From the NCBI GenBank assembly GCA_017499595.2, contig CM039001.1, positions 3,472,001 through 3,536,000 on the forward strand: 64,000 nt of DNA. Direction: 5' to 3'. Shown here one piece after another: positions 10,615 through 23,787 of this stretch (its first letter is position 1; each line of letters starts with the position of its first letter). Under the pieces are notes generated by a model. That model saw only the letters and a list, made by a program, of their open reading frames with translations. It made no database searches and had not been told where the DNA came from. Position numbers and translations under genes: made by a program. This DNA comes from Psilocybe cubensis (Eukaryota).

Positions 10615-13600
10615 ATCGTCACCTGTAAATAAAAGTTTATCCCCTACAAAGAGATTGACAGGAGTCTAGTAGGAGAAGGTGGATGAGAGATAAACGATGT
10701 ACTTCAGGGGTCAATATGCTAATTACCGTGGAAAACTAGCTACGCGATGGCCCATCATTTCACGTGATCGTGATCGCACCCTTAATTTCTTTCTCACACT
10801 CGGCCCGATACTGATGTTTGTTGCACTAAATAAAAAAATAAAGAAAATGAAAAATTCCCAAAATGGAAGGGAGGAAAGAAGGGGAAGAGAGAAGGATGGG
10901 TCGTTCACTTTCTACCATACTGCTTACCAACGCACTTCAAAATGCCACTTCAATTCGCGTTTTCCACGGTTTACGGGCTGGCTCAGCTCTAGACTGTGAT
11001 ACTCGCTTAGATGCACTTCAAATGCCCGAAAAAATCAAAGATGGTAAGAGCTCCGGTTGCATAATTTTTAGCACATCTGATACTCGCCTATACCGCGTAG
11101 ATTTTTTTAAGCGTCGGTTAGATTTGAACAACGCACATCTCCGTGGCTGCCAAGCCAAGCACTTGGTAGAAATCTCCAAAGACGCAAGGAACACGGTTCA
11201 GCTGTGACCGGGTGCGTGGAAGTGTTTACGCACGCTCGTTATAAGAAAAAACTGCAAAGGTACGTTGAATGCAAGTCTGTTAATGATTAACTGGCTAAAT
11301 TACTACAGGCGCCCCCTCTTTTTTTTCACATTAGGGCGGCGTGCTGGGTCAACTCCTTCCCAACCACTATAGCAAGGCTTGTTGGGCTGCTTTGTATTGC
11401 GACCATCACAATCAACATCTCCGCAATCGCGACACGGTGACCTGCAAAAGAGCACCTGCCCACGGCCTGAGCAACGTTCTGATCCGCATTTTGCACAGGT
11501 ACGAGGAGCTTTCTTTTTTTCCAATGCTTTTGACCTTCCAATCTGTTCACGTACTCGTTGTTGAGCTAGCGCCTCTCGTTGAGCCCAATTTTGCAAATCA
11601 AGACCTATTTCATAAGCAGGCCGACCAGGTATTCCAATAGAAAGGTGTGTTTGCGCTTCGTTTGTGCTTCTTGATGCAGAAACATTGAAATTCGGACGTG
11701 TTGGCGGGTTTGATAATGTGCGTGATTGTGATTGAATATTTGTTCGGACTGTGCTGCTGTGCTGATCATTTTGCAGAGAATGTTGGGGAAGATTGAAGAA
11801 GTTACCCAGCGAAACAGATGTTGGAAGGAGTCCACTGCTTATACGTGCCGGTTGGAGGGAGGTTTGGGGTACACGTGGTGCCGTTGAGGAGCGTGTAGGA
11901 TCTGTCAACTCTAATGCAAGTGGTCGGCGGGTATCGTATGTCATCGTTAATGTCTCTTTTGAATTGACAAGTGTTTTCCATTTTGAATAGTATGACTTTA
12001 GCTGCTCGATTAGCTATCAAAACAATTGTATAAGTGTTTTACAACAGTGTGGTATTTGATTAATTGAGGCTCTCACCTTGTAAGATATGGTAGGCTCAGT
12101 ATCAGCATAGTGATTCCATACTTTGACCGCCTCTTTCCATATAGGTCCAGATGAAACTGAATTATACTCGGGATTTTTTTGCATAAGATGCCGAAAAAGT
12201 TGTTTTTCATCCGGATTGTGTACTGGAAGAATTGGTTTTCGGGTCTTCTGCATTTGTGCTAGGAATGCATGTTTTTGCCGCCTATCGAGACTTGGCGTAT
12301 ACTCAGTCATACCAGCCGAAGTGCGAATTTCAAGTGGGATGGGAAGTATTCCAAGGACCTCGGAAGTCTGCATATATAGATTACCATTTACCCACCCAGT
12401 TAGTTCGAGCGGATTTATAAGAACATCTCGCAGATATTCCAATCGTTCTTGAATACTATTAGTCAACCATATAGAAAAATGGCCACGATATCTTTGACCC
12501 GTGCTATTGAATGTGCCAACCTAACAAACAAAATATTGAAAAGACAACTTGAACAATTTCAATAAGCAAACTTACAATGAGATTGTGTCGCAAAACAAAA
12601 TCAGATATGCAAGAATGGACATGTTCAACGGATGCTCCTGATGTTGGAAGATGAGATCGCAGATGTGTGTGTACTCCACCTTCTGTCATATTTGTTCCAC
12701 GCAGACAGCGATAAATTGTGAGGCCTGGAGCCTTGCTATCCACACAAACCTCGACATAGAGTGGAATTCCTGGAGGATCCGATAGAAATCCGCATCGAGC
12801 CAAGTCAAGTACATGGCCACATGTTTTCCAAGTACTAAAATTGAACAAGGCAACGCCAGTGGTGGCATCTTTAAGTGGTCCAAATGTCTGAAAAACCTTC
12901 TTGAGAAGATCATAAAGTATGTCGGCCGAAGGTATGATTCGTTTACACCGCCGCCATAGCCATTTTGGTCGTGAAGATCGAAGTTGCTCAAATGTGACTG
13001 GAGGGGTTTGTTTGGCTCCCCAGGCATTTATATTGGCTCGGTCATTGGCATCTGGAATAAAAATGGCATCCCGGAGTTGACGAGCAAATTCAATGCGTAA
13101 ACCGTGGTTGGAGACAATGTGGAACATGTTGAAAACGTGAAAAATGTCCTTGATAACACGACTGCAAATTGTAGAATCCCAGCTTTTTGGATACTGCGAA
13201 AAAATCTGTTCTCCAATAGATGCACTTTCTTGATCAATGTCATGAGATAGTCTTTCAATGGATGGCTCTGAATTTCCTCCAATAGATGGCTCTTCTATAG
13301 ATTGAAGTCCCATTACCATTTCCCCAATAGTTGGTGTTAGAGAGTCCGAGTCATTGTGTAGTGAGTTAACATCTAGCATCGACCCGTCCATTTCTAGAGC
13401 ATCAAGAGCAGATTCAGATAAGGTAGGCACAACTGAATCTTGGGCAGAATCCGAGTCCATAGAAGAGAACTGAGTCCAAGATGCTGGAGAAAATTTTCAA
13501 AGATGGCTACGCAAGCAGACGAGAGAGAAAGGAGGAGAGCCAAATGATAACAATGTCTGCTTTCGGTGGGAAGTGATAATAGCTCCAGGAACAAGAACAT

Positions 13601-15024
13601 CTTCAATATCCACTACAGTCCTTGTCTTTGTAACATTGATGCCATCGTATAGACGGTTGTTGAAGTGTGCAGAAATCTTGCCACGAGCAATAACCGTACG
13701 GTCAGTGCTGTATACAAGAACAGGAATACCAGGATATATGTTGGATGGGAGGGGCTGTGGAACGTCAAGACTAGAGAGCTTTTCATAGATGCATAAGCAT
13801 GCATAAGCATCACAGGCAGCATATTTAAGCTGTTCTGCTGTGAGTACTTCATTTTGCCATGCATTGCTGATCCGTTCAGGAACGTTCTTCTTCAAGCACT
13901 TGCCTAGCACCTTTGCGCAAAGATCAGCTAAGCTGCATTTTGCGGAAGAAACAACCATTCGATCTTTTGCAAAGCTAGCAAGATCGAGATCGCCAACAAA
14001 CGGCTGTGATGATTGGCATGAACTTTGTAGGTGCTTCAAGTCTGCGGAAATGAGTCGGCCAGCTTTAATAACTTTTGGGTTTGCCAATAAAAGCTTGAGT
14101 TGGGATGGCAATATTCCTCCAGCAAGCATATCGCCAACCTAAACAATTCATATAATTTAACAACATTTCAATAAAGATAGCATAAAGAATATATAGCGTA
14201 CCTGTAGGATATACACCTGATCTTTATAGGCAATTTGAATTATTGCAGTTTGTCCTCGGTTAAGCACATGCCCATTTGATGACACTTCAACGTTCCATTC
14301 CGAATCAAACCCAATGACTATCTTGCTATTGGGATCATTGGGGTCTAAATCATCCATAATTGCGTCCATGGCCGCGTCAATCGAGGAAGCTGTATTTTTG
14401 ACAAAAATTGATACTGAGGATGTGGGAATGTCAAATGCATCAAGATTAGAATACTTCTCGATCGGGACCACAGACTCTCGGAGGGATGGAAAGCAATCTT
14501 CGAGAAACTGTTTGTCCGACATGTTGTCGGTAAAAACAAGTTTGGGTAAGGGAAGACCATATGTTTTCAGGGATTCTTGAATTCCTTGTAGAGCGAGTTG
14601 ATACTGGGAGTGTGATTTTGTGGCAACAAGATTACAAGAGCGGATTTCCCCCTTTTCATTGGTGACAGTAAGCAGAGCAGTAAAAACTGCTTCACCGTTA
14701 ACTTTGGCAACATGTTTAGTCACCTGTAATTGAGTTTTAGCACTTCAGATAAACATTATCAATCATCGAGAAAAGGCACCTTGTGACTGTGGTCAAGCGC
14801 CAGAATTTCACCACCAAGCATTGAAGTATGTTGATTGATATCACTAAAATGTGATTCAATGAATTGATCGTACATATTGCGAATCCACTGTGCACTTGGT
14901 GTAAAGCCATGGCGCCCATCAGGACCCTTGGCGTCAAAAGACGGAAAGGCTGTATACTTTTGAGATGTCCACTTGTCGAGTGTACGTCCAGCAAGCTGAT
15001 TTAAATACTGAAGATGGAGCGTGT

Positions 15025-15474
15025 TGTCAGGGCAACACTATAATCAGTGTGACAAGGCCACCAACAAAGATTAAGCAAGAGAGAGAGAGAGAGAGCAGAG
15101 GGAGAGTAAGAGAGCAAAGAGAGAATAAGAGAGTGAGAGAGATTCAATGGTTCTAAGAGATCACACCAATGATAGTGGATATCCTAAGAGATTGAAGCTG
15201 AAGCTACAGCTACCTACAAGTCCAGTATTTATACTCTACAGCTATTCTAGAATATTCCCTACATTACATCATAAAGGAAGGTTAAAGAATAAAAGTGACA
15301 TCATATAGAAAAAGGATGAGTAAGACTAGGAATCATATAGAATTTACTAGAAAGAAGTGGAGCAAGAAGGCTGTGATGAAAGAAATAAACTATCTAATCA
15401 GATAATTGATAAGATAATGAAAGAATAAGATAATTCTGTGAAGATAAAGAGGGGAAACTGGAGAAACCCTGACA
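15025..15474 (-). repeat. 3' LTR (450 bp)
   Basis: TGTCAGGG...CCCTGACA terminal inverted ends; differs from the other LTR only at 15188 by my reading. Confidence 0.97.
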
Positions 15475-15489
15475 TCACCCCCTCTCTAA
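15475..15489 (-). promoter_or_regulatory. Polypurine tract
   Basis: Minus strand TTAGAGAGGGGGTGA directly before the 3' LTR; it also encodes the last Pol codons. Confidence 0.85.
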
Positions 15490-18400
15490 GGCACATTTTC
15501 CACAATGTGCACATGGATGGGTTAGTTTAGAGGGTTTAAGAAGAGGAGGAGGTTCAGTAAAGTTAATAATAGGAGTGAAAGAAAGTCTATCAAAGGTCAC
15601 AGCAGAAATCCTTCTAGGTGCTGAAGGATGTTTGGCATGGAAGTCCTTGATAGCCTTAGAAGCATTTTTCAAATGCTCTGCAGGCTCCCAAGTGCATTCT
15701 TCATTAGGATAGTTCTTCCACTTGACCAAATATTGAAGTTTGTTTCTAAAAAGTCTGCTGTCCTTGATAAATTCAACTTCCCACTCAGGATTTTCTCCTT
15801 GAATGACAGGAGGTGGTCTAGAAGGAGGCTTTCTTCCTACAATATCTGGGTGATAAGGTAGAAGTTTAACCACATTGAACACTGGATGGATTTTCATGGT
15901 AGATGGCAGCTTAAGCTCATAGGCATTAGGGCTAATAACTTTGGTAATTTTGTAAGGCCCATATCTTTTATCATCCAATTTCTTGGAGGGCCTATCAGTT
16001 TTGAGGTCCTTGCCATCTAACCATACCAAATCCCCAACTTTGTACTGAGTTGGAGTACCTCTGTGTCTATTATAGAATTTAGCCATATCATCAGCAGCTT
16101 TTCTAAGTGCAGACTCTGCTTCTTTCCTGGCTTCTTCCATATTTTTCACAAAGGTATCCACAGTGTCCATTTTACTATCTCTAAGGGGTTCAGTGCCCAT
16201 TCTGGGATGTCTGCCATTATTGAGCATGAATGGTGTCTGCCTGGTTGAAGCCTGAACTCTATTGTTATAAGAGAATTCAGCTAGAGCTAACCATTCAACC
16301 CAATCATCTTGTCTATGGTTTATAAAGAGTCTAAGATACTGCTCAATTTCTTGGTTAACTCTTTCAGTCTGACCATCAGTTTGGGGATGGTAGGCTGTAG
16401 ATGAGGCTGTCTGGATACCAAGTATTGAGTTGAGTTCTTTCATAAACCTTGAGACAAACTGTGGACCTCTATCACACAGAATTTTAATGGGTAAGCCATG
16501 GTGTTTCCAGACATAATCTCTGTATAGTCTGGCTGTCCCTTCAGAAGTGACTTCATCTGTAGTAGGGATAATGTGGATCATTTTACTAAGTCTATCCACA
16601 ACCACCATAATGGCATTATACCCTTGACATTCTGGTAACCCCATAATAAAGTCCACAGAGATGCATTGCCAGACATCAGAGGGAATCTCAGTAGGAATTA
16701 AAAGGCCAAGAGGTTTGGCTGGAAAGATTTTGGTTCTGTTGCATCTATCACAACCTCTGGTATAGGCTGCAATAAAATGTGATATTCCTGGCCACCAATA
16801 ATTCCTAGAGACTAGCTCAATTGTCTTCCATTTCCCTGGATGTCCAGCAATGAAGGCATCATGGTGCAGTTCCACAATCTTTCTTCTAAGATCTTTGTCC
16901 TTGGGAACATACACCTTCCCCCTGTAGAGAATAAGGCCTTGTTCTTCTGACCATTCCTGTCCTTCAATCTTCTTGGTAGAAGATTTCTTGAGCTCCTGAA
17001 CTGCCTTGACCACCTTTTCATCCATCTCCTTAGCTTCTCTAATCTTCTTAAGAAGATCATTTTCTGCACCAGTAATGGTAGCATGACCCTGCTTGAGAGC
17101 CTGGATTTTAAAGTATGAAGGTTTGAGGAGAACTACATTTTGGTTATCATTCTCTCCCTTTTTATGATCTGGTCTCCTAGACAAAGCATCTGGCTTAAGA
17201 GATCTTTTACCAGGCCTATGATGAAGAGTAAAATCAAATCTGGACAGGAAGAGTGACCATCTGGCTTGCCTTCTGCTGAGCTTTTGGGCAACCATAAAGT
17301 ACTCTAAGTTTTTGTGGTCTGTCCAAATCTCAAAGGAATGTTGGGTTCCTTCAAGATAATGTCTCCATTCATCTAGTGCTCTGATAATAGCCAGCATCTC
17401 TTTGTCATGGATCTCATAATTCCTTTCTACTTCAGATAGACTCTTAGACATAAAGGCTACAGGATGCCATTTCCCATCTGATCCTTCCTGAGATAAAACA
17501 GCCCCAGTAGCATAATCTGAACTGTCTGCTTCAACTTTATATGGCTTGTTATCATCAGGGAAAATCAAGACAGGTGAAGAAGTGACTTTCTTCTTTAACT
17601 GGTCAAAGGCTTCCTGCTGTCTAAGACTCCATCTCCAGACTGTTCCTTTCTTTGTCAATTCATGAAGAGGCTTAGCAATGTCTGCAAAATCCTCTATGAA
17701 CCTTCTATAAAAATTAACAAATCCCAAGAATGATTGGACATCCTTGACATTTTCAGGTTCAGGCCATTTAGAAACTCCCTCTACCTTGACAGGATCCATC
17801 TCAATCCTGCCTTGTGAAATGATTAGTCCAAGATATTCAATCTTTTCCTTTTCAAATTCACATTTCTCTGCTTTAAGGTAGAGTTTGTTCTGTTCTAAGA
17901 TTTGCAGAACTTGCTTGACTACCTCTCTATGATGATCAAGAGTCTCAGTGAAAATTAAAATGTCATCCATGTAGACAATGACAACATTTCCATCAATGAG
18001 CTCAATAAAGATATCATTCATCATAGTTTGGAAGGTAGCAGGACTATTGGTTAAACCAAAGAACATGACCAATGGTTCAAACAGCCCTCTATTGGTTCTA
18101 AAGGCTGCTTTCCATTCATCTCCCTTTTTGATTCTGACATTGTTAAATCCCCACCTAACATCAAGTTTGGTAAAGTATTTGGCTTTGCTGAGTTTGGTGA
18201 TGATGTCAGAAATCAATGGAAGGGGGTAGGAGTTCTTGATGGTCATTTCATTCAGTTTCCTATAGTCCTGGACAAGCCTAAGAGATCCATCCTTCTTCTT
18301 GACAAAGAATACAGGGGAGGCCATAGGTGACTTGGAGGGTCTAATCCTGCCAGACTTCAGATTTTCCTCTAAAAAGGCATCAAGTTCCTTTTGTTCATTG

Positions 18401-19344
18401 GGAGAAAGAGGATAAATCTTGGATCTGTAAGATTCAGAACCAGGTTTCAGCTCAATAGCATGATCCCAAGGCTTTCTGTCTGGTAGCCTATCAAAAGATT
18501 CCTTTGAAAAAACACCTTTAAACTGATGATAGTGCTTAGGAACAGTTTCTTCAAAGGTTTTCTTAGGGGAATCAGCTTGCTGATGAGACTCTTCTGCTAA
18601 TCTTTGAGACATAGTAGAAGTAGCATTAATAGACTGCTTCTGAGGATGAAGGTATGAGATAAAAATTCTATCCTCAGGCTCAATCTCAGAATCAGAAGAA
18701 TCTTCAATAGAATCATCTTCTTCTTCATCAAATTGAGGGAGTTTCCTCCTTTTGACTGCAGCTATTCTCTGCCTCTTTCTTCTGGCTCTTTTGGCTTCCA
18801 TTTGGCAGTCAGAGGGACATCTAATAAACTGGACATCCCCTGTCTTCCAATCAACATCTGGATTATGGTGCCAAAGCCAAGTATGTCCAATGATAGCAGA
18901 TTTGTCTCCCAAGTCACAAACAGCAAAGGTGGCCCTTTCTGTATGGTTTTTGTGTACCATAATTAAGTCTACTTCCTCATGGATAGAACCACTCTTGTTG
19001 AGAGTACCATCAACATTATAGACTGGAATGGCTCTAGGAAGTTTCCTTGTGTTGAGATTATGATACTTCACAAAACCAGAATGCAGAAAGAGGCCAGTAG
19101 CTCCAGAATCAAGCAAAGCATCAACAGATAACCTTTTCTCTGTGTCCATTGTCTTTAAGATGACAGACAAATGGGTAGAGGTTTTAGGATTATGGTTGAG
19201 GATGTAGATCTTTTCAGGGAAGGTAGAAAGAGAGGAAGAAGAAGACATGATTTCTGCACCAGAATCTGAAGACTGAGGATCAAGTCTGTCAATTTCATTT
19301 TCTAGTACATTAAATCTATTCCATTGGGACATGTCTTTCACCAA
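15475..19344 (-). CDS. pol: Pol polyprotein: protease, RT, RNase H, integrase, chromodomain
   Basis: LLDSGA, YMDDIL, ADSSDYATGAVL, HH-CC zinc finger, SVDFI..CDRG..TERVN, C-terminal EWEVEFI..YLVKWKNY..TWEP chromodomain; the stop codon abuts the 3' LTR. Confidence 0.97.
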   Translation of the reverse strand: MVKDMSQWNRFNVLENEIDRLDPQSSDSGAEIMSSSSSLSTFPEKIYILNHNPKTSTHLSVILKTMDTEKRLSVDALLDSGATGLFLHSGFVKYHNLNTRKLPRAIPVYNVDGTLNKSGSIHEEVDLIMVHKNHTERATFAVCDLGDKSAIIGHTWLWHHNPDVDWKTGDVQFIRCPSDCQMEAKRARRKRQRIAAVKRRKLPQFDEEEDDSIEDSSDSEIEPEDRIFISYLHPQKQSINATSTMSQRLAEESHQQADSPKKTFEETVPKHYHQFKGVFSKESFDRLPDRKPWDHAIELKPGSESYRSKIYPLSPNEQKELDAFLEENLKSGRIRPSKSPMASPVFFVKKKDGSLRLVQDYRKLNEMTIKNSYPLPLISDIITKLSKAKYFTKLDVRWGFNNVRIKKGDEWKAAFRTNRGLFEPLVMFFGLTNSPATFQTMMNDIFIELIDGNVVIVYMDDILIFTETLDHHREVVKQVLQILEQNKLYLKAEKCEFEKEKIEYLGLIISQGRIEMDPVKVEGVSKWPEPENVKDVQSFLGFVNFYRRFIEDFADIAKPLHELTKKGTVWRWSLRQQEAFDQLKKKVTSSPVLIFPDDNKPYKVEADSSDYATGAVLSQEGSDGKWHPVAFMSKSLSEVERNYEIHDKEMLAIIRALDEWRHYLEGTQHSFEIWTDHKNLEYFMVAQKLSRRQARWSLFLSRFDFTLHHRPGKRSLKPDALSRRPDHKKGENDNQNVVLLKPSYFKIQALKQGHATITGAENDLLKKIREAKEMDEKVVKAVQELKKSSTKKIEGQEWSEEQGLILYRGKVYVPKDKDLRRKIVELHHDAFIAGHPGKWKTIELVSRNYWWPGISHFIAAYTRGCDRCNRTKIFPAKPLGLLIPTEIPSDVWQCISVDFIMGLPECQGYNAIMVVVDRLSKMIHIIPTTDEVTSEGTARLYRDYVWKHHGLPIKILCDRGPQFVSRFMKELNSILGIQTASSTAYHPQTDGQTERVNQEIEQYLRLFINHRQDDWVEWLALAEFSYNNRVQASTRQTPFMLNNGRHPRMGTEPLRDSKMDTVDTFVKNMEEARKEAESALRKAADDMAKFYNRHRGTPTQYKVGDLVWLDGKDLKTDRPSKKLDDKRYGPYKITKVISPNAYELKLPSTMKIHPVFNVVKLLPYHPDIVGRKPPSRPPPVIQGENPEWEVEFIKDSRLFRNKLQYLVKWKNYPNEECTWEPAEHLKNASKAIKDFHAKHPSAPRRISAVTFDRLSFTPIINFTEPPPLLKPSKLTHPCAHCGKCALERG

Positions 19345-19352
19345 TGGTGCTT

Positions 19353-20462
19353 CTAAAAATTTTTCTTTTCCTCATCTTTCTGCTCCTTGCCTTCCAAGAT
19401 TAATTTCCCAAAGTAGTCAGCCAGTTCTTCATGGGTCATAGCATTGATGTTAACTGATGACCTGCAGTTTACAGCCTTATGACCAGGCTTTCTGCACTTG
19501 AAGCAAACAATTGGCCTAACTGACTTCCATCCAGAGTCAACCTCCATGGGAACTACATCTGATTGCTTTGCCTGAGCACCAAAGGTCCTTGAGCTGCTGT
19601 TGGAAAAGACTGGAGGATTTGGAGTAAGCTTAGGAACAGCCTTGGGAGTTGGGGCTTTAAGGAAGGGAGAAGAAGAGGAGGAGGAAAGAGACTTGGTAAA
19701 GGCCTCACTCTGTCTCCACTGCCTATCTAGCCTAGTACTCCATTTAATCCATCCATCCAAGGTTTTGGGCATGTCAGGAACATAGTAGACTGCATTCCTA
19801 AGATTTTCATTAAGCCCAGCCTTGAATTGGTCTACCAAAGCAGCATCATTATACCCAGTATCTGAGATCAGAGCCCTGAAGCTAGCAACATACTCATCAG
19901 CAGTCTGTCTGCCTTGCTTGAGCATGTGCATTTTATGCTTAGCTGTGTTGGAGGGGTCTGGATCTGCAAACACTTCCCTAAATTCATAAACAAAGTCAGC
20001 CCAAAGACCTTCTTGGGACTGAGCATTGTCTATTACTTTAGTCTTCTCATATGCCCACTTCCCAGCAGTACCTCCTTTCATATGAGATAGAGCACAAATA
20101 ACTTTCTGAAAGTCATCTGTAATCCCTTTCCCATAGAAATATAATTTAAGCTGACTGAGGAAGTTTTCTGCCTTTTCCATAGAACCATCAAATGGATCTG
20201 GAGGTGAGACTTTAATGGCAGAGTGTGAACAGGAAGGGGCAACATGAGGGGTAGGGAAAGAGTGAATATCTAGAGCAGCAGGTGGTGGTGGTGGTGGTGG
20301 TGATGGTGACTGACTGACTGGTTGCTGAGGGTGTGGTGGAGTGGATAATGACTGCTGCTGCTGTCTAAGAAAATTCAACTCTTGGGTAAGGAGCTGGACC
20401 TGATGCATGAGCTCTTCCACAGAAGGAGTGGTGGGAGGCAATTGGGAGGGGTCCATGTCCAT
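19353..20462 (-). CDS. gag: Gag with CCHC zinc knuckle
   Basis: PDPFDG, LKQGRQTADEY, VPMEVD, CFKCRKPGHKAVNC. Confidence 0.95.
   Translation of the reverse strand: MDMDPSQLPPTTPSVEELMHQVQLLTQELNFLRQQQQSLSTPPHPQQPVSQSPSPPPPPPPAALDIHSFPTPHVAPSCSHSAIKVSPPDPFDGSMEKAENFLSQLKLYFYGKGITDDFQKVICALSHMKGGTAGKWAYEKTKVIDNAQSQEGLWADFVYEFREVFADPDPSNTAKHKMHMLKQGRQTADEYVASFRALISDTGYNDAALVDQFKAGLNENLRNAVYYVPDMPKTLDGWIKWSTRLDRQWRQSEAFTKSLSSSSSSPFLKAPTPKAVPKLTPNPPVFSNSSSRTFGAQAKQSDVVPMEVDSGWKSVRPIVCFKCRKPGHKAVNCRSSVNINAMTHEELADYFGKLILEGKEQKDEEKKNF
19356..19362 (-). promoter_or_regulatory. -1 ribosomal frameshift slippery heptamer A-AAT-TTT
   Basis: Gag ends AAA AAT TTT TAG; the -1 frame continues TTA GAA GCA CCA TTG GTG AAA GAC ATG into pol. 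Confidence 0.8.
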
Positions 20463-20954
20463 GGGTAGGGGTAGGTAGGCTCTCTGATGTGTGTGTGGGA
20501 GAAGCTATCTACTGAAAGTGCCCTTGAAACTATACTAAGTATTCTAAAAAAAATATCTATCTACTGGATACCCAGTTGTCACACCACTCAGGGCTCTAAA
20601 CCTAGGATCACAGGGTTACTGGATATTTCCTAGACCACCAAAAACAGAACACTAGTAGGACTGTGTCTGCCCCAACAGTTGGTATCCCTATCTACTAAGT
20701 TCACACACAGCACACAACAGAGAGTAGGAAAGATGATGAGCCAAAGGTCTTGAGGAAAGGTCTTGAGGAAAGGTTTTGAGGAGGATGTTGAAGATTGGTG
20801 GAGATGTAGAGATTGGTAAGAAGATTGGTGAAGAGGTTGATGAAGAGGTTGGTGGGTTGGAAGTGGAGGAAGAAGGTTGAGGTGATGGTGTTGAAGAGGT
20901 TGAAGAGGTGAAGAGTTTGGTGTTGAAAGAGAGATGGTGGAGTTGTCTTGAGAG

Positions 20955-20966
20955 AGCTTCAATCTT
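20955..20966 (-). promoter_or_regulatory. Self-priming primer binding site (Tf1/sushi type)
   Basis: Minus strand AAGATTGAAGCT just inside the 5' LTR, complementary to AGCTTCAATCTT at LTR 21131-21142; no TGG tRNA-type PBS. Confidence 0.8.
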
Positions 20967-20967
20967 C

Positions 20968-21417
20968 TGTCAGGGCAACACTATAATCAGTGTGACAAGG
21001 CCACCAACAAAGATTAAGCAAGAGAGAGAGAGAGAGAGCAGAGGGAGAGTAAGAGAGCAAAGAGAGAATAAGAGAGTGAGAGAGATTCAATGGTTCTAAG
21101 AGATCACACCAATGATAGTGGATATCCTAAAAGATTGAAGCTGAAGCTACAGCTACCTACAAGTCCAGTATTTATACTCTACAGCTATTCTAGAATATTC
21201 CCTACATTACATCATAAAGGAAGGTTAAAGAATAAAAGTGACATCATATAGAAAAAGGATGAGTAAGACTAGGAATCATATAGAATTTACTAGAAAGAAG
21301 TGGAGCAAGAAGGCTGTGATGAAAGAAATAAACTATCTAATCAGATAATTGATAAGATAATGAAAGAATAAGATAATTCTGTGAAGATAAAGAGGGGAAA
21401 CTGGAGAAACCCTGACA
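20968..21417 (-). repeat. 5' LTR (450 bp)
   Basis: Direct repeat of 15025-15474; TATAAATA on the minus strand near 21168-21175. Confidence 0.97.
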
Positions 21418-23787
21418 CGTGTCGTACTTCAATAAATGATGAATCCGGATGGTGTCTGATATTTGTTTGGCTGCCATGCCATTTTGAAAGCCAGACCGTA
21501 CAATTTCAAAGAGAGGCTTTGATATCGCACTACGATGACTGAGAATGGCGGGAAATTCTGCTGCAAGATCTTGAGGAAGCATTGAAAGGATTCGACTATC
21601 CCAAGAGTTGAAAGTGACAGTGTGCTTTCCTGATACAGGATGAATGCATACGCCGCACCTATAGCGGAAGCCAATAATGTAGAACTCAGAGTCGATATCG
21701 ACAACCCGACGAGGACGGGAAATATGCCCGTGTCGTCGTAACGGAAACTTGCACTTTGGACAGCCAATTCTAAATAATGCTCGTGGATCCCACAAGCACA
21801 TCCGAGGATTAAAGAGCTTTGATGGCGAGGGTTCATTTTGCAATAATAGAAAGTAGGGGGACGGTTGGGGAAACCAAATTGTACGATGTTTTGCATATAG
21901 CAGGGGGAGGCCATTTTCATCACGATTTTCAGACGACGACTCGGAAATCTTAGAATTGAAGGCTTTTTGAAGCCATGCAGGTGGGGCACAATCTACACAA
22001 GAAGACTCTTGTAACTCGCTGTTTTGATCAAGAGGATCCACCTCGTCACCCCGCTCATCTTCGTTCTGAGCAAACTCAAACTCCTGACCAATTCCCTCGC
22101 CCAAACATTCAAGGTCTACTTCATCCTCATCTTCATCACCCCAATCAACTGCTCTCGAAGGATTTTCTTCAGGTATAATTTGAATGTTTGATGTTGAATG
22201 CTGAGATAGCAAGTTTGGCGGATCGTGTGATGTTGACGAAGGTAGAACAACAGTATGTGGGCTTCTGGTGTGGCCAGTTGTTGGGTTGTCAGAGTCGTTA
22301 GATATGTGCATGTTTGATAGGTCTGATACAGAGAATTCACGTTGAATATTGGCCGGCCGTGTCGCACTCGTATTGCCTGCAATAATCTGTACGTATGCAA
22401 AAGTAAGTGCAAATCTGACATATAGGTGCATATAAAGACAGAAAGTGGCATACCATGCTTCCCAATTCAATTGAAACCGGAGGCACAACTGTTCGCGGCC
22501 GTCCAACAGGCCTCTTTGAAGCCTTTACAACACCTCCATTTGCAACTGCTTCTCGAGCTCGTTGCTTTGGACCTGATCCCCTCGGTCGGCCAACTGGACG
22601 GCGCTCCATTGGGGTCGTCGAATCTGTGTTCCGATTCTTGCTTGTACTCCCTAATGGGCGTCCACGTTTTCGAGGAGGTTCCGAGGCATTGCTGGGCACA
22701 TCAGCATCCGACGATATGTTGTAACACTACGCGCAAGAATTCATTTTTGATGGTCACAAATGTAGAAAAAATTTGATTAGGAATATTGATTAAACGACGG
22801 GCGAAAAAGTGTTCAAAAATTAGTTGTTAAAATTCGAATGTGACAATGAATTTACACGATCAGTGAAAATGACCACATATTTATACTTTTCGATCCGAAC
22901 TAAGTCAATATTTAGTATTAAAAGGCTTAGTTAGGACAATTAGAAATCCACGACCACCGAATATATTATGTGTTGCAATTGTTTCTCGCTTGTGATGAAG
23001 ACAATTGAACATTCAATATAAATTGATTCTTTTGTGATATCTACAAAAACACTCGTAAATTTTAAAGTTATGAACTTCATAAAATAATAAACAAGTACCT
23101 GTCTTGTACTGCGCCTGTACTTAACTCGTACTGGTCCCAAACTGGTCCAATAGTTGTCTACTCTTGAGCCTTTCGCCGACTGATCCCACGTGATGTCCGG
23201 CTATCGATCCCCGCCATCCGTCGGCTGGATTAGGACCCCTTAACCTACCTAAAGAAGTCCCAACCGGTCAGATATCCGCCCTTCCAGATATCCCCCCGAC
23301 CGTCCAGAACCTTCTCATTTGGATTTCGAGATATCTATCCGTGCGACCAGCCACCAGCGATATCACTGCGATATATCGTACGTGATTATCTACTGACGTA
23401 ATCCATGGAATTAGACTGATGATCCAATCTAATCGTATGTTGGTATGGTCACTTAAGCTATGTAGTTTGTAGTTTGAACGGAAATTGGGTCTGCAATTGA
23501 TATGTTGGTATGTCACTAGAGTAATTTATTTTTCCGAGCTCGTCCGAGTGCGACAAACAAATTAGTTACAAGTCTTTTGTAAGTATGCTGGAACAATTCA
23601 CCGAAATGCCCACTTGAGCCTTCATCCCGATGATACTAACGCCACAACGTCGTTTTCGTCACCACCTTCATTTACTGAGGCTTCGTGTTTGTCGGCCATC
23701 GGTCCAGGGTTGTACAAGTTACATAGCGTGAAGGCGGCCATTGCCCCCGGTCATTCAGCCATGGGTCTACGCAGTCAGTTTTTTTAA

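Follow-up and report, generated by a model that had tools for sequence, protein, structure and literature searches.

Complete absence of CpG dinucleotides from an intact Ty3/gypsy chromovirus of Psilocybe cubensis

Repeat-induced CpG methylation was reportedly described in Coprinus by Freedman and Pukkila in 1993. According to excerpts of PMC6191308, methylation in Pleurotus ostreatus is found mostly at CpG and is concentrated in transposons, with Gypsy families being 26–59% methylated and repressed; small RNAs are also used by Agaricomycetes. Loss of CpG from methylated transposons of CG-methylating hosts has been described for vertebrate Alu, L1, and ERV sequences and for fungal repeats (excerpts of PMC7431005 and PMC3318451). 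The discussion of PMC3318451 also states that Microbotryum elements carry few TpCpG targets at places where mutation would be nonsynonymous, that is, that transposon lineages there are depleted of the motif attacked by the defence where mutation hurts, and it describes no clear RIP-like pattern for three Agaricomycotina species. The lack of symmetric sites for stable maintenance methylation in the plant Ty1/copia element ONSEN was read as epigenetic escape, the absence being stated, in PMC3907296, for the promoter/LTR and for a host that still methylates CHH. As for replication, Tf1 and Tj1 are self-priming elements whose primer-binding site (PBS) is the complement of part of the 5' LTR (excerpt of PMC4600332).

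The element at positions 15025–21417 (6393 bp) of the window, which is the whole 64,000-nucleotide stretch of Psilocybe cubensis DNA analysed, proved to be an intact chromovirus of the Ty3/gypsy group; its LTRs, leader, open reading frames, and the transcription and priming signals given below all belong to the minus strand. The 3' LTR (15025–15474, with ends TGTCAGGG...CCCTGACA) and the 5' LTR (20968–21417) are 450 bp each, begin and end with TG...CA, and are identical at 449 of 450 positions, the one mismatch being at 21131 versus 15188; the 5-bp target site duplication (TSD) CGTGT is present at 15020–15024 and 21418–21422, as is typical of an LTR retrotransposon. The TATA box TATAAATA (21176–21169) and a (GA)n/(CT)n tract (21021–21085) were found in the 5' LTR, which is followed by an untranslated leader of 505 nt (20463–20967), C/T-rich on the sense strand, with a 13-nt tandem repeat (20743–20782) whose copy number differs among family copies.

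The gag ORF (19353–20462) encodes 369 aa plus the stop and contains a Ty3 capsid-like domain (Ty3_capsid, E 3e-10), a retrotransposon gag domain (Retrotrans_gag, 3.5e-9), and a CCHC zinc knuckle (zf-CCHC, 3.3e-4). The pol ORF, counted from its first ATG (15475–19332; 1285 aa plus the stop), belongs to a stop-to-stop frame that opens at 19371, lies in the -1 frame relative to gag, and overlaps it by 19 nt. Tf1 has a single ORF; unlike Tf1, this element keeps gag and pol separate, and a -1 frameshift at the candidate heptamer A AAT TTT (19356–19362), read directly ahead of the gag stop, would connect them. The Pfam domains of pol, RVT_1 (residues 344–505), RNase H (568–699), Integrase_H2C2 (812–868), rve (889–983), and SH3_Tf2-1 (1100–1161), place the integrase after reverse transcriptase and RNase H, as in Ty3/gypsy elements, and a chromodomain at the C-terminus (PF00385 Chromo, residues 1184–1233, E 2.5e-15) identifies a chromovirus. 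Upstream of the reverse transcriptase no protease family was matched in Pfam at E<=0.001; a protease-like motif, LLDSGATG, occupies residues 72–79 (DSG at 75–77), and L73, D75, G77, A78, and G80 are shared by 90% or more of 41 aligned homologues. A probable polypurine tract AGAGAGGGGGTGA (15475–15487) adjoins the 3' LTR and overlaps the pol stop codon. The claim of the preliminary description that both ORFs are intact and the LTRs nearly identical thus holds, neither gag nor pol having internal stops.

Downstream of the 5' LTR no tRNA-type TGG PBS was seen, and neither tRNA genes nor Rfam families were found in the element or its vicinity, so priming by a tRNA was rejected. A putative PBS at 20955–20966 is instead a 12-nt perfect complement of 21131–21142 in the 5' LTR, that is, of the putative first 12 transcript nucleotides AGCTTCAATCTT, which start 34 nt downstream of the TATA-box start. 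Within the window this 12-mer is confined to the LTRs and the PBS, apart from one site with a single mismatch at 2189, and in the predicted RNA fold the PBS pairs with 21131–21142 (dG -40.2, z -2.16). Judged from these sequence features, the element is probably of the Tf1-like self-priming type.

The insertion lies in an exon of a host gene. The downstream part of this gene, on the minus strand at 11303–15024, includes a 3'-5' exonuclease domain in the ORF 13500–14138 and has a CpG observed-to-expected ratio (O/E) of 0.75, and the upstream part, on the same strand at 21423–22524, carries a DUF6729 domain and has an O/E of 0.85; in silico removal of the element with one TSD copy yields a 455-aa open frame across the insertion point. 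FunK1 kinase genes were also observed in the flanks and, together with the named homologues given below, point to an Agaricomycete host. Pfam searches of 30 other window ORFs of at least 130 aa revealed no other transposon domains, and therefore the window offers no comparator family.

The main feature of the element is that it contains no CG at all, although its base composition predicts 266.3 (O/E 0.000); the Poisson chance of zero at a mean of 266 is about e^-266. The zero that the preliminary description had claimed for the LTRs, UTR, gag, and pol was found in each of these compartments, for which the expected numbers are 13.4 (each LTR), 21.2 (5' UTR), 57.1 (gag), and 156.2 (pol), and the two LTRs and the leader are in this respect what would be expected of the promoter region of a 'stealth' element. 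Since the GC dinucleotide occurs 215 times, the absence is specific to CG. Directly outside the element CG is back, as had also been claimed: the nearest ones, at 15020 and 21418, are formed by the first bases of the two TSD copies, both flanks have a CpG O/E of 0.88, and each 1-kb bin outside the element holds 28–71 CG. The CG-free gap comprising the element measures 6398 bp, whereas the runner-up in the 64-kb window is only 197 bp long. The dinucleotide comparison of element and flanks called for in that description gave no TpG/CpA excess, the O/E of TG and CA being 1.21 and 1.15 in the element versus 1.16 and 1.15 in the rest of the window; for TA the values were 0.69 and 0.72, and the G+C content was 40.9% in the element versus 45.6% in the window. 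A segment beside the element that is repeated two to four times has a CpG O/E of 1.14.

At the codon level, all 91 arginine codons of gag and pol are AGR, while the host ORFs of the window encode 216 of their 267 arginines by CGN; the codons TCG, CCG, ACG, and GCG do not occur at all, and no C|G codon junction is present versus 88 expected (21.5+66.6). Recoding with host codon usage introduced a mean of 54 CG into gag and 202 into pol, and the element's own codons placed in random order still gave a mean of 21 and 73, the lowest of 1000 draws being 9 and 52. The third base of four-fold codons before G was T in 99 cases, A in 72, G in 13, and C in none, whereas a model allowing only C-to-T changes would expect 32 A and 140 T. 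Positions facing CGN codons of intact relatives are mostly occupied by arginine in the element (33 of 54 in the comparison with relative L001), followed by lysine, and few are occupied by cysteine, tryptophan, histidine, or glutamine. The proteins of the element are ordinary, and the CpG absence in its coding parts is achieved entirely via synonymous choices.

Read data indicate that the absence extends to the whole family. In raw Illumina DNA reads of run X18 the depth was about 1500 over the element versus about 31 over the left flank, and in contigs of run X1 it was about 530 versus 17; the raw reads correspond to a family of about 30–50 near-identical copies. None of the 24 element variants listed (of 198 variant places in the stretch of element plus flanks, with copies below 5% frequency outside the view) creates a CG, although 18 of the 24 are A>G or T>C changes and about four CG-creating ones would be expected by chance (calculated p about 0.01). 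The differences of this copy from the family majority are almost exclusively C:G-to-T:A transitions. Of 71523 placed reads, 45413 are at least 99% alike to the sequence, and contigs of independent runs agree with it. Six contigs of 152–231 nt from run X14 lie on the element; this run is only guessed to be RNA, and they were not counted as evidence of expression. The family is best regarded as active or as having been so very recently.

The search for related proteins gave 6450 homologues with identities of up to 88%, the closest being at 77–88%; the closest named ones are from the Agaricomycetes Lyophyllum shimeji and Phellinidium pouzarii. Relatives for which DNA was compared are all from other hosts and show at most 60% protein identity among the metagenome matches listed. 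Scans of viral_contigs with queries P0001, A2, P0007, and P0013 gave relatives of at most 53% identity, and the scan of genome_contigs gave no match with P0001 and, with A2, nothing but contaminating contigs, none of them above 59%. Each of the 128 related loci listed (1500 bp or longer) contains CpG, and their stretches without CG reach 1845 bp at most. The 30 intact relatives in this set, those with an ORF of 1000 aa or more, all fall within a CpG O/E of 0.61–1.22, while none of the 18 relatives with an O/E under 0.3 has an ORF longer than 530 aa; the lowest O/E among the broken relatives listed is 0.068, and several of the CpG-poor broken ones use AGR far more than CGN. A tree was built from the element and 21 of 94 loci, the other 73 having been dropped because no unbroken HSP of theirs reached 300 aa; in it the sister group of the element (87/87) is a clade whose CpG O/E is 0.88–1.0.

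In its TG..CA LTRs, 5-bp TSD, CCHC gag, PR-RT-RNase H-IN order (with PR as a candidate), SH3_Tf2-1 domain, chromodomain, and putative 5'-LTR-complementary PBS, the element resembles Tf1/sushi Ty3/gypsy retrotransposons; unlike the 30 intact relatives listed, it has no CpG. With ONSEN it shares the lack of symmetric sites for stable maintenance methylation, and unlike in ONSEN, the absence spans the whole 6.4 kb, 4.97 kb of it coding, and the host is a fungus with relatives that methylate CG nearly exclusively. The depletion of a motif attacked by the defence recalls the Microbotryum transposons; however, in that member of the Pucciniomycotina it is partial and concerns a trinucleotide, whereas here it is total and extends to synonymous as well as non-coding positions. 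CpG-decayed repeats are old, have broken ORFs, and gained TpG/CpA, unlike this young and intact element without such an excess. A literature search on CpG in transposons yielded no report of a CpG-free fungal transposon.

Taken together, the family-wide zero, the intact ORFs, the codon architecture, and the normal CpG content of the nearest relatives with DNA imply a lineage-level purge under purifying selection rather than decay. Post-insertion loss of CpG was ruled out on the basis of the flank-like TG/CA ratios, the intact ORFs, and the lack of any restored CG among the 24 variants listed, and no signature of RIP-like hypermutation of TpCpG or CpA targets was seen in the TA ratios (0.69 versus 0.72) or in gag and pol, which are free of stops. 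The earlier reading, an intact, young, functional lineage without CpG rather than post-insertion decay, is thus kept and extended by the AGR-only arginine codons, the absence of a TpG/CpA excess, the family-wide extent, and the finding that the CpG-poor relatives are all broken. The 'stealth' step of that reading is carried here as a proposal. We infer that selection, rather than mutation alone, is behind the CpG absence, and our preferred interpretation, with a probability of roughly 0.55, is that the lineage is kept CpG-free by selection, with a CpG-directed host defence as the most likely agent. CpG would have been removed from the coding parts through encoding arginine by AGA and AGG, avoiding NCG codons, and avoiding C-ending codons before G, and from the LTRs and leader through sequence turnover. 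The selective agent could be CG-specific cytosine methylation of transposons together with the associated silencing and the mutation of 5mC. An element with zero CG would present no symmetric site at which methylation could be laid down or maintained, and for this reason its copies are proposed to stay transcribable and free of CpG decay.

An unlikely alternative is that the absence is a mutational by-product: long CG methylation or RIP-like CpG hypermutation would strip CpG, with purifying selection only saving the proteins and no escape from silencing. Over-representation of CpG transitions in Agaricomycotina repeats, ascribed to 5mC deamination (excerpt of PMC3318451), and CpG-biased hypermutation reported in Rhizoctonia solani (excerpt of PMC4014442) show that such pressures occur, and the related loci form a depletion gradient, with broken relatives down to an O/E of 0.068 and several AGR-biased ones. 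However, not one of the 91 arginine codons has been retained as CGN, a considerable share of the gap ahead of G is filled by A-ending rather than T-ending codons, zero CpG is reached by no dead relative listed, and the repeated neighbouring segment has a CpG O/E of 1.14. The element contains 910 CpG precursor sites (TpG+CpA), and in a simple balance over them, zero of about 266 would be likely only if CpG transitions outpaced the reverse change by a factor above about 150, a ratio far exceeding that of the decayed relatives with their minimum O/E of 0.068. The lack of a TG/CA excess over the flanks points in the same direction; since long-term mutation pressure could erase such an excess, it weakens a mutational origin rather than disposing of it.

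The pressure could also act on RNA or cDNA, through a CpG-sensing host factor of the ZAP type or a deaminase editing CpG in each replication cycle, leaving CpG-free genomes as the only efficient replicators, which by analogy is conceivable and which we regard as improbable. Vertebrate RNA viruses and lentiviruses that evade ZAP likewise avoid CpG via synonymous choices and have AGR-rich arginine coding; unlike here, their suppression is partial, and the sensor acts on RNA. ZAP-driven CpG suppression has reportedly been documented in primate lentiviruses (PMC12012506). Everything transcribed from the element (R-U5, leader, gag, pol, and U3-R) is CpG-free, in keeping with such a pressure, and the C:G-to-T:A differences of this copy reveal deamination-type change in the lineage, although these transitions are not necessarily in a CpG context and are therefore uninformative on CpG targeting. 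We know of no CpG-sensing RNA factor in fungi, and the U3 part above the putative start, which enters a transcript only as part of the 3' LTR, likewise lacks CpG, an observation that suits both models. Inheritance of the composition by horizontal transfer from an extremely CpG-poor donor, too recent for CpG to be regained, is less probable still. It would accord with the lower G+C content of the element (40.9% versus 45.6%) and with a near-identical element without flanks in contigs of X11, a run labelled as another organism; however, the word depth of the element in X11 is 3–7, at which single-copy flanks are too shallow to assemble, so this run provides no evidence of another host. Moreover, the TA, TG, and CA ratios agree with the host flanks, the closest named homologues are Agaricomycete, CpG content is normal in the nearest relatives for which DNA was compared, and no genome with CpG at zero is known to us. 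Finally, some long-read basecallers make systematic errors at modified bases, and miscalls at methylated CpG or another artefact of sequencing or assembly could in principle erase CG. The sequence is reproduced by the Illumina reads of X18 and by contigs from independent runs, no CG is restored among the 24 variants listed, and miscalls would not give AGR-only arginine and unbroken ORFs, making an artefact barely credible.

Returning to selection by a CpG-directed defence, escape from methylation would fit the 30–50 near-identical copies, although a large number of copies is correlative evidence. Integration into heterochromatin is suggested by the chromodomain, and Agaricomycetes use small RNAs as well (excerpt of PMC6191308), so a lack of CG need not equal a lack of silencing. 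With these points in mind we propose tentatively, at slightly less than even odds, that the element may be a 'methylation-proof' autonomous retrotransposon, whose total CpG avoidance in the LTRs, the leader, and some 5 kb of coding DNA would be a counter-defence to CG-only DNA methylation, maintained by ongoing selection on about 900 precursor sites, and which would have been amplified to tens of identical copies, including exon insertions.

The control of transposons by cytosine methylation is usually approached from the host side, and where transposons have lost part of their CpG, this is normally taken as a passive scar of methylation. A complete scar, written into synonymous codons without harm to the proteins, suggests that the element itself has evolved in response. 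Should the family prove active and free of methylation in nuclei where families with CpG are methylated and silenced, CG methylation would be directly shown to limit mushroom transposons, escape of a transposon by recoding itself would be shown, and the strength of lineage-level selection would become measurable. A practical handle is that the natural element and a CpG-recoded one are comparable in a transformable Agaricomycete. If the methylation-proof reading holds, the family would offer a ready natural experiment on the causal role of CG methylation in the control of transposons in Basidiomycota.

The retrotransposon at positions 15025–21417 (6393 bp, minus strand, 40.9% G+C) contains no CG dinucleotide at all, against 266.3 predicted from its base composition. 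The absence extends over each 450-bp LTR (0 vs. 13.4 expected), the 505-nt leader (0 vs. 21.2), gag (20462–19353; 0 vs. 57.1) and pol (19332–15475; 0 vs. 156.2), all read on the minus strand. The CpG observed/expected ratio (O/E) is 0.88 in both the left and the right flank, where all 1-kb bins carry 28–71 CG. The longest CG-free run in the 64-kb window measures 6398 bp and the second longest 197 bp. The nearest CGs, at 15020 and 21418, each open one copy of the target-site duplication (TSD) CGTGT, so that the preliminary description, which had claimed zero CpG over the element and its return directly at the TSD, proved exact. Since the GC dinucleotide occurs 215 times in the element, the absence is restricted to the 5'-CG-3' order.

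By type, the element is an ordinary chromovirus with putative Tf1-like self-priming. As previously claimed, its reading frames are intact and its LTRs nearly identical: the 5' LTR (20968–21417) and the 3' LTR (15025–15474), both 450 bp, on the minus strand and ending in TGTCAGGG...CCCTGACA, differ by a single mismatch (21131 vs. 15188). The gag product (369 aa) has Pfam matches to the Ty3 capsid, retrotransposon-gag and CCHC knuckle models, and the pol product (1285 aa counted from the first ATG) carries RVT_1, two RNase H models, integrase zinc and core domains, SH3_Tf2-1, and a C-terminal chromodomain. No Pfam protease model passed the threshold in pol; residues 72–79 form the motif LLDSGATG, and L73, D75, G77, A78, and G80 are conserved across 90% or more of the 41 homologues aligned. 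Because pol lies in the -1 frame relative to gag, its open frame overlaps the gag end by 19 nt, and a heptamer resembling canonical slippery sites (A AAT TTT, 19362–19356) immediately precedes the gag stop, pol is probably reached through a candidate -1 ribosomal frameshift. The purine tract AGAGAGGGGGTGA, read from the sequence, adjoins the 3' LTR on the minus strand. In U5, each LTR also has an imperfect (AG)n stretch some 65 bp long (15078–15142 and 21021–21085), which reads (CT)n in the sense direction.

A tRNA-type primer site was not found next to the 5' LTR, and neither Rfam families nor tRNA genes were present in or near the element. The 12 nt adjoining the 5' LTR (20955–20966) are a perfect complement of positions 21131–21142 within the LTR, which begin 34 nt downstream of the start of the TATA box TATAAATA; the same 12-mer lies at 15188–15199 in the 3' LTR, and its last base is the lone LTR–LTR mismatch. 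In the predicted fold of an RNA starting from 21142, the first 12–13 nt pair with the primer-binding site (dG -40.2 kcal/mol, z -2.16), with a further stem in U5. As in the equivalent self-priming arrangement described for Tf1 and Tj1 (PMC4600332), the primer-binding site is complementary to the element's own LTR sequence at the putative transcript 5' end, a layout corresponding to putative Tf1-like self-priming and not to tRNA priming.

The element interrupts a minus-strand gene with DUF6729 and 3'-5' exonuclease domains. The upstream part of this gene (21423–22524) is represented by an ORF with the DUF6729 domain running from 22524 into the LTR, and the downstream part by minus-strand ORFs with the exonuclease domain within 11303–15024. 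In silico excision of the element and one TSD copy restored a 455-aa open frame across the insertion point; therefore, the insertion struck an exon. The window also contains two fungal-type (FunK1) kinase ORFs, one F-box ORF, and others. The adjoining segment 22425–23258 has a CpG O/E of 1.14 and 2–4 times the depth of the single-copy flank in two public sequencing runs, X18 and X1.

The coding regions avoid CpG at the level of codon choice. Arg is encoded 91 times in gag and pol, always by AGR (58 AGA and 33 AGG); TCG, CCG, ACG, and GCG are never used, and codon junctions contain no CG, against 21.5 + 66.6 expected; in host ORFs of the window, CGN accounts for 216 of 267 Arg codons. Recoding with host usage gave on average 54 CG in gag and 202 in pol, and shuffling the element's own CG-free codons still produced 21 and 73 junction CG (lowest values 9 and 52 over 1000 draws). 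At Arg positions common with the element, the intact related loci L001, L002, and L017 use CGN in 33/49, 35/44, and 32/38 cases, while the element has AGR every time. Thus, the protein is conserved and the avoidance of CpG is synonymous.

A deamination scar was considered and rejected. The comparison of element and flanks that the preliminary description had proposed showed no TG/CA excess accompanying the loss of CpG: the O/E of TG and CA is 1.21 and 1.15 in the element vs. 1.16 and 1.15 in the rest of the window, and the dinucleotides in excess are AG, CT, GA, and TC (1.23–1.39). Many third bases of four-fold codons before G are A (T 99, A 72, G 13, C 0), whereas C-to-T change only would predict 32 A and 140 T. 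Where relatives have CGN, the element mostly has Arg, followed by Lys; there are few cases of Cys, Trp, His, and Gln, which deamination would yield.

The stretch or part of it was found in public sequencing runs (15 rows from seven studies). In the raw Illumina DNA reads of X18, depth is about 31-fold in the left flank (both directions summed) and about 1300–1680-fold in the element interior, corresponding to roughly 45–50 copy equivalents at no less than 90% identity; 45,413 of 71,523 mapped reads are at least 99% alike to the sequence. Word depth in the contigs of X1 (17 in the flank, about 520–550 in the element) gives about 30 copy equivalents. These contigs cross from both flanks into the LTRs without any difference; therefore, this run has this very insertion. 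Loose read ends at the LTR edges agree poorly, which matches the expectation of many different insertion sites. None of 24 element variants, among the 40 listed of 203 variant places in a 12.5-kb stretch, creates a CG; 18 of them are A>G or T>C, and about one quarter of these 18 would create a CG by chance (P of none about 0.01). In X11, a run labelled as another organism, the element interior is present at about 99% identity without flanks; this is not read as a second host, since the word depth of 3–7 is that expected from a trace of the same fungus with tens of copies. Synonymous avoidance, the lack of a TG/CA excess and a multi-copy family with no CG among its listed variants uphold the earlier claim of a functional lineage rather than post-insertion decay, and support the CpG purge as a lineage-level trait of this family.

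At about 16 places this copy departs from the majority base of the family, almost always by a C:G-to-T:A transition (13 A where the majority has G, three T where it has C, and one transversion), several in the sense-strand context C-CTT. The places span 15424–20175 and 21367, and no reverse-direction change at high frequency is among those listed. The changes at 15424 and 21367 are the same at the same position of both LTRs, and at least that one therefore predates insertion. Variation within the family is greatest in the 5' leader (at 20743–20935). There, a tandem unit of 13 nt is present in 3.1 copies in this element, with one unit fewer in the contigs of X1 and X11 and in 601 of 1444 reads of X18, and several deletions of 104–139 nt are visible as read joints.

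Among 8000 scored candidates, 6450 pol homologues had E ≤ 0.001, the best being 88% identical and many lying on 5–6-kb metagenome contigs; named ones come from Lyophyllum shimeji and Phellinidium pouzarii and, together with the window's FunK1 ORFs, suggest an Agaricomycete host. The DNA-level comparison covers relatives more distant than the 77–88% identical ones, from metagenome contigs (at least 80 loci), viral contigs (18), and bacterial genome records (33). The last group (L099–L131), filed as isolates or MAGs, codes for chromovirus pol of the fungal type and is almost certainly eukaryotic contamination; among its members are low-coverage contigs from Shewanella, Neobacillus, and Oceanobacillus assemblies and contigs from several soil MAGs.

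Within the regions matching pol, CpG O/E of the first 80 loci ranged from 0.054 to 1.21; among the 128 loci that reach 1500 bp, O/E over the whole locus fell as low as 0.068 and CG-free runs reached 1845 bp at most. O/E is 0.61–1.22 in the 30 loci whose longest ORF encodes 1000 aa or more, while in the 18 loci with O/E below 0.3 the longest ORF does not exceed 530 aa, so low CpG here accompanies broken copies. Among the loci compared, the element alone is both whole and CpG-poor, at zero. In several broken CpG-poor relatives (L053, L047, L054, L028, L030, L026, and L010), AGR codons far outnumber CGN (e.g., 17:1, 24:1, and 44:7), a bias not due to deamination of CGN, which cannot yield AGR. 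The once-active ancestors of such copies may already have been CpG-poor, and partial CpG avoidance may exist in other lineages. On a maximum likelihood tree of 22 sequences (of 94 loci, 73 had no uninterrupted HSP reaching 300 aa and were left out), the element is sister to L001/L002/L003/L017 with support 87/87. The O/E of these loci is 0.88–1.0, which places the purge on the branch leading to this family, relative to loci more distant than the 77–88% identical relatives.

As a phenomenon, the element extends three known ideas: the lack of symmetric methylation sites proposed for the ONSEN promoter (PMC3907296), the scarcity of TpCpG targets in transposons of Microbotryum (PMC3318451), and the CpG decay of methylated transposons (PMC7431005). 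Compared with each, as described in these sources, the loss here is total, element-wide and synonymous, and the family is intact and multi-copy. Full-text searches on CpG in transposons, covering few subscription journals, turned up no description of a fungal transposon free of CpG.

These observations require a force that eliminates CpG from, or bars it in, an actively replicating lineage whose proteins are under purifying selection, while sparing neighbouring host DNA. A passive end-point of extreme CpG-directed mutation, with no escape involved, is the main rival, though an unlikely one: the element contains 442 TG and 468 CA, each one transition from CG, and for zero CpG to be a likely mutational equilibrium, loss would have to exceed gain more than about 150-fold, in a calculation that ignores coding-site selection. 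Less likely than this is a CpG filter acting on RNA or cDNA, which we consider improbable. A composition inherited through horizontal transfer seems very improbable, with normal CpG in the sister loci, and an artefact can practically be dismissed, given the matching Illumina reads and the contigs of independent runs.

The leading candidate for this force is the transposon-directed, CG-specific methylation of Agaricomycetes; the CpG absence would plausibly be its evasion, a "stealth" reading to which we assign a probability of roughly 0.55. In Pleurotus ostreatus, methylation amounts to 4.0% in CpG vs. 0.5–0.6% in other contexts and falls mainly on repeats; among Gypsy families, the most invasive are 26–59% methylated and repressed (PMC6191308); repeat-induced premeiotic methylation in Coprinus cinereus is cited in the same source. 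If such host methylation were the agent acting on the element lineage, a copy without CG would offer no possibility of symmetric methylation, and for this reason should evade both silencing and accelerated mutation.
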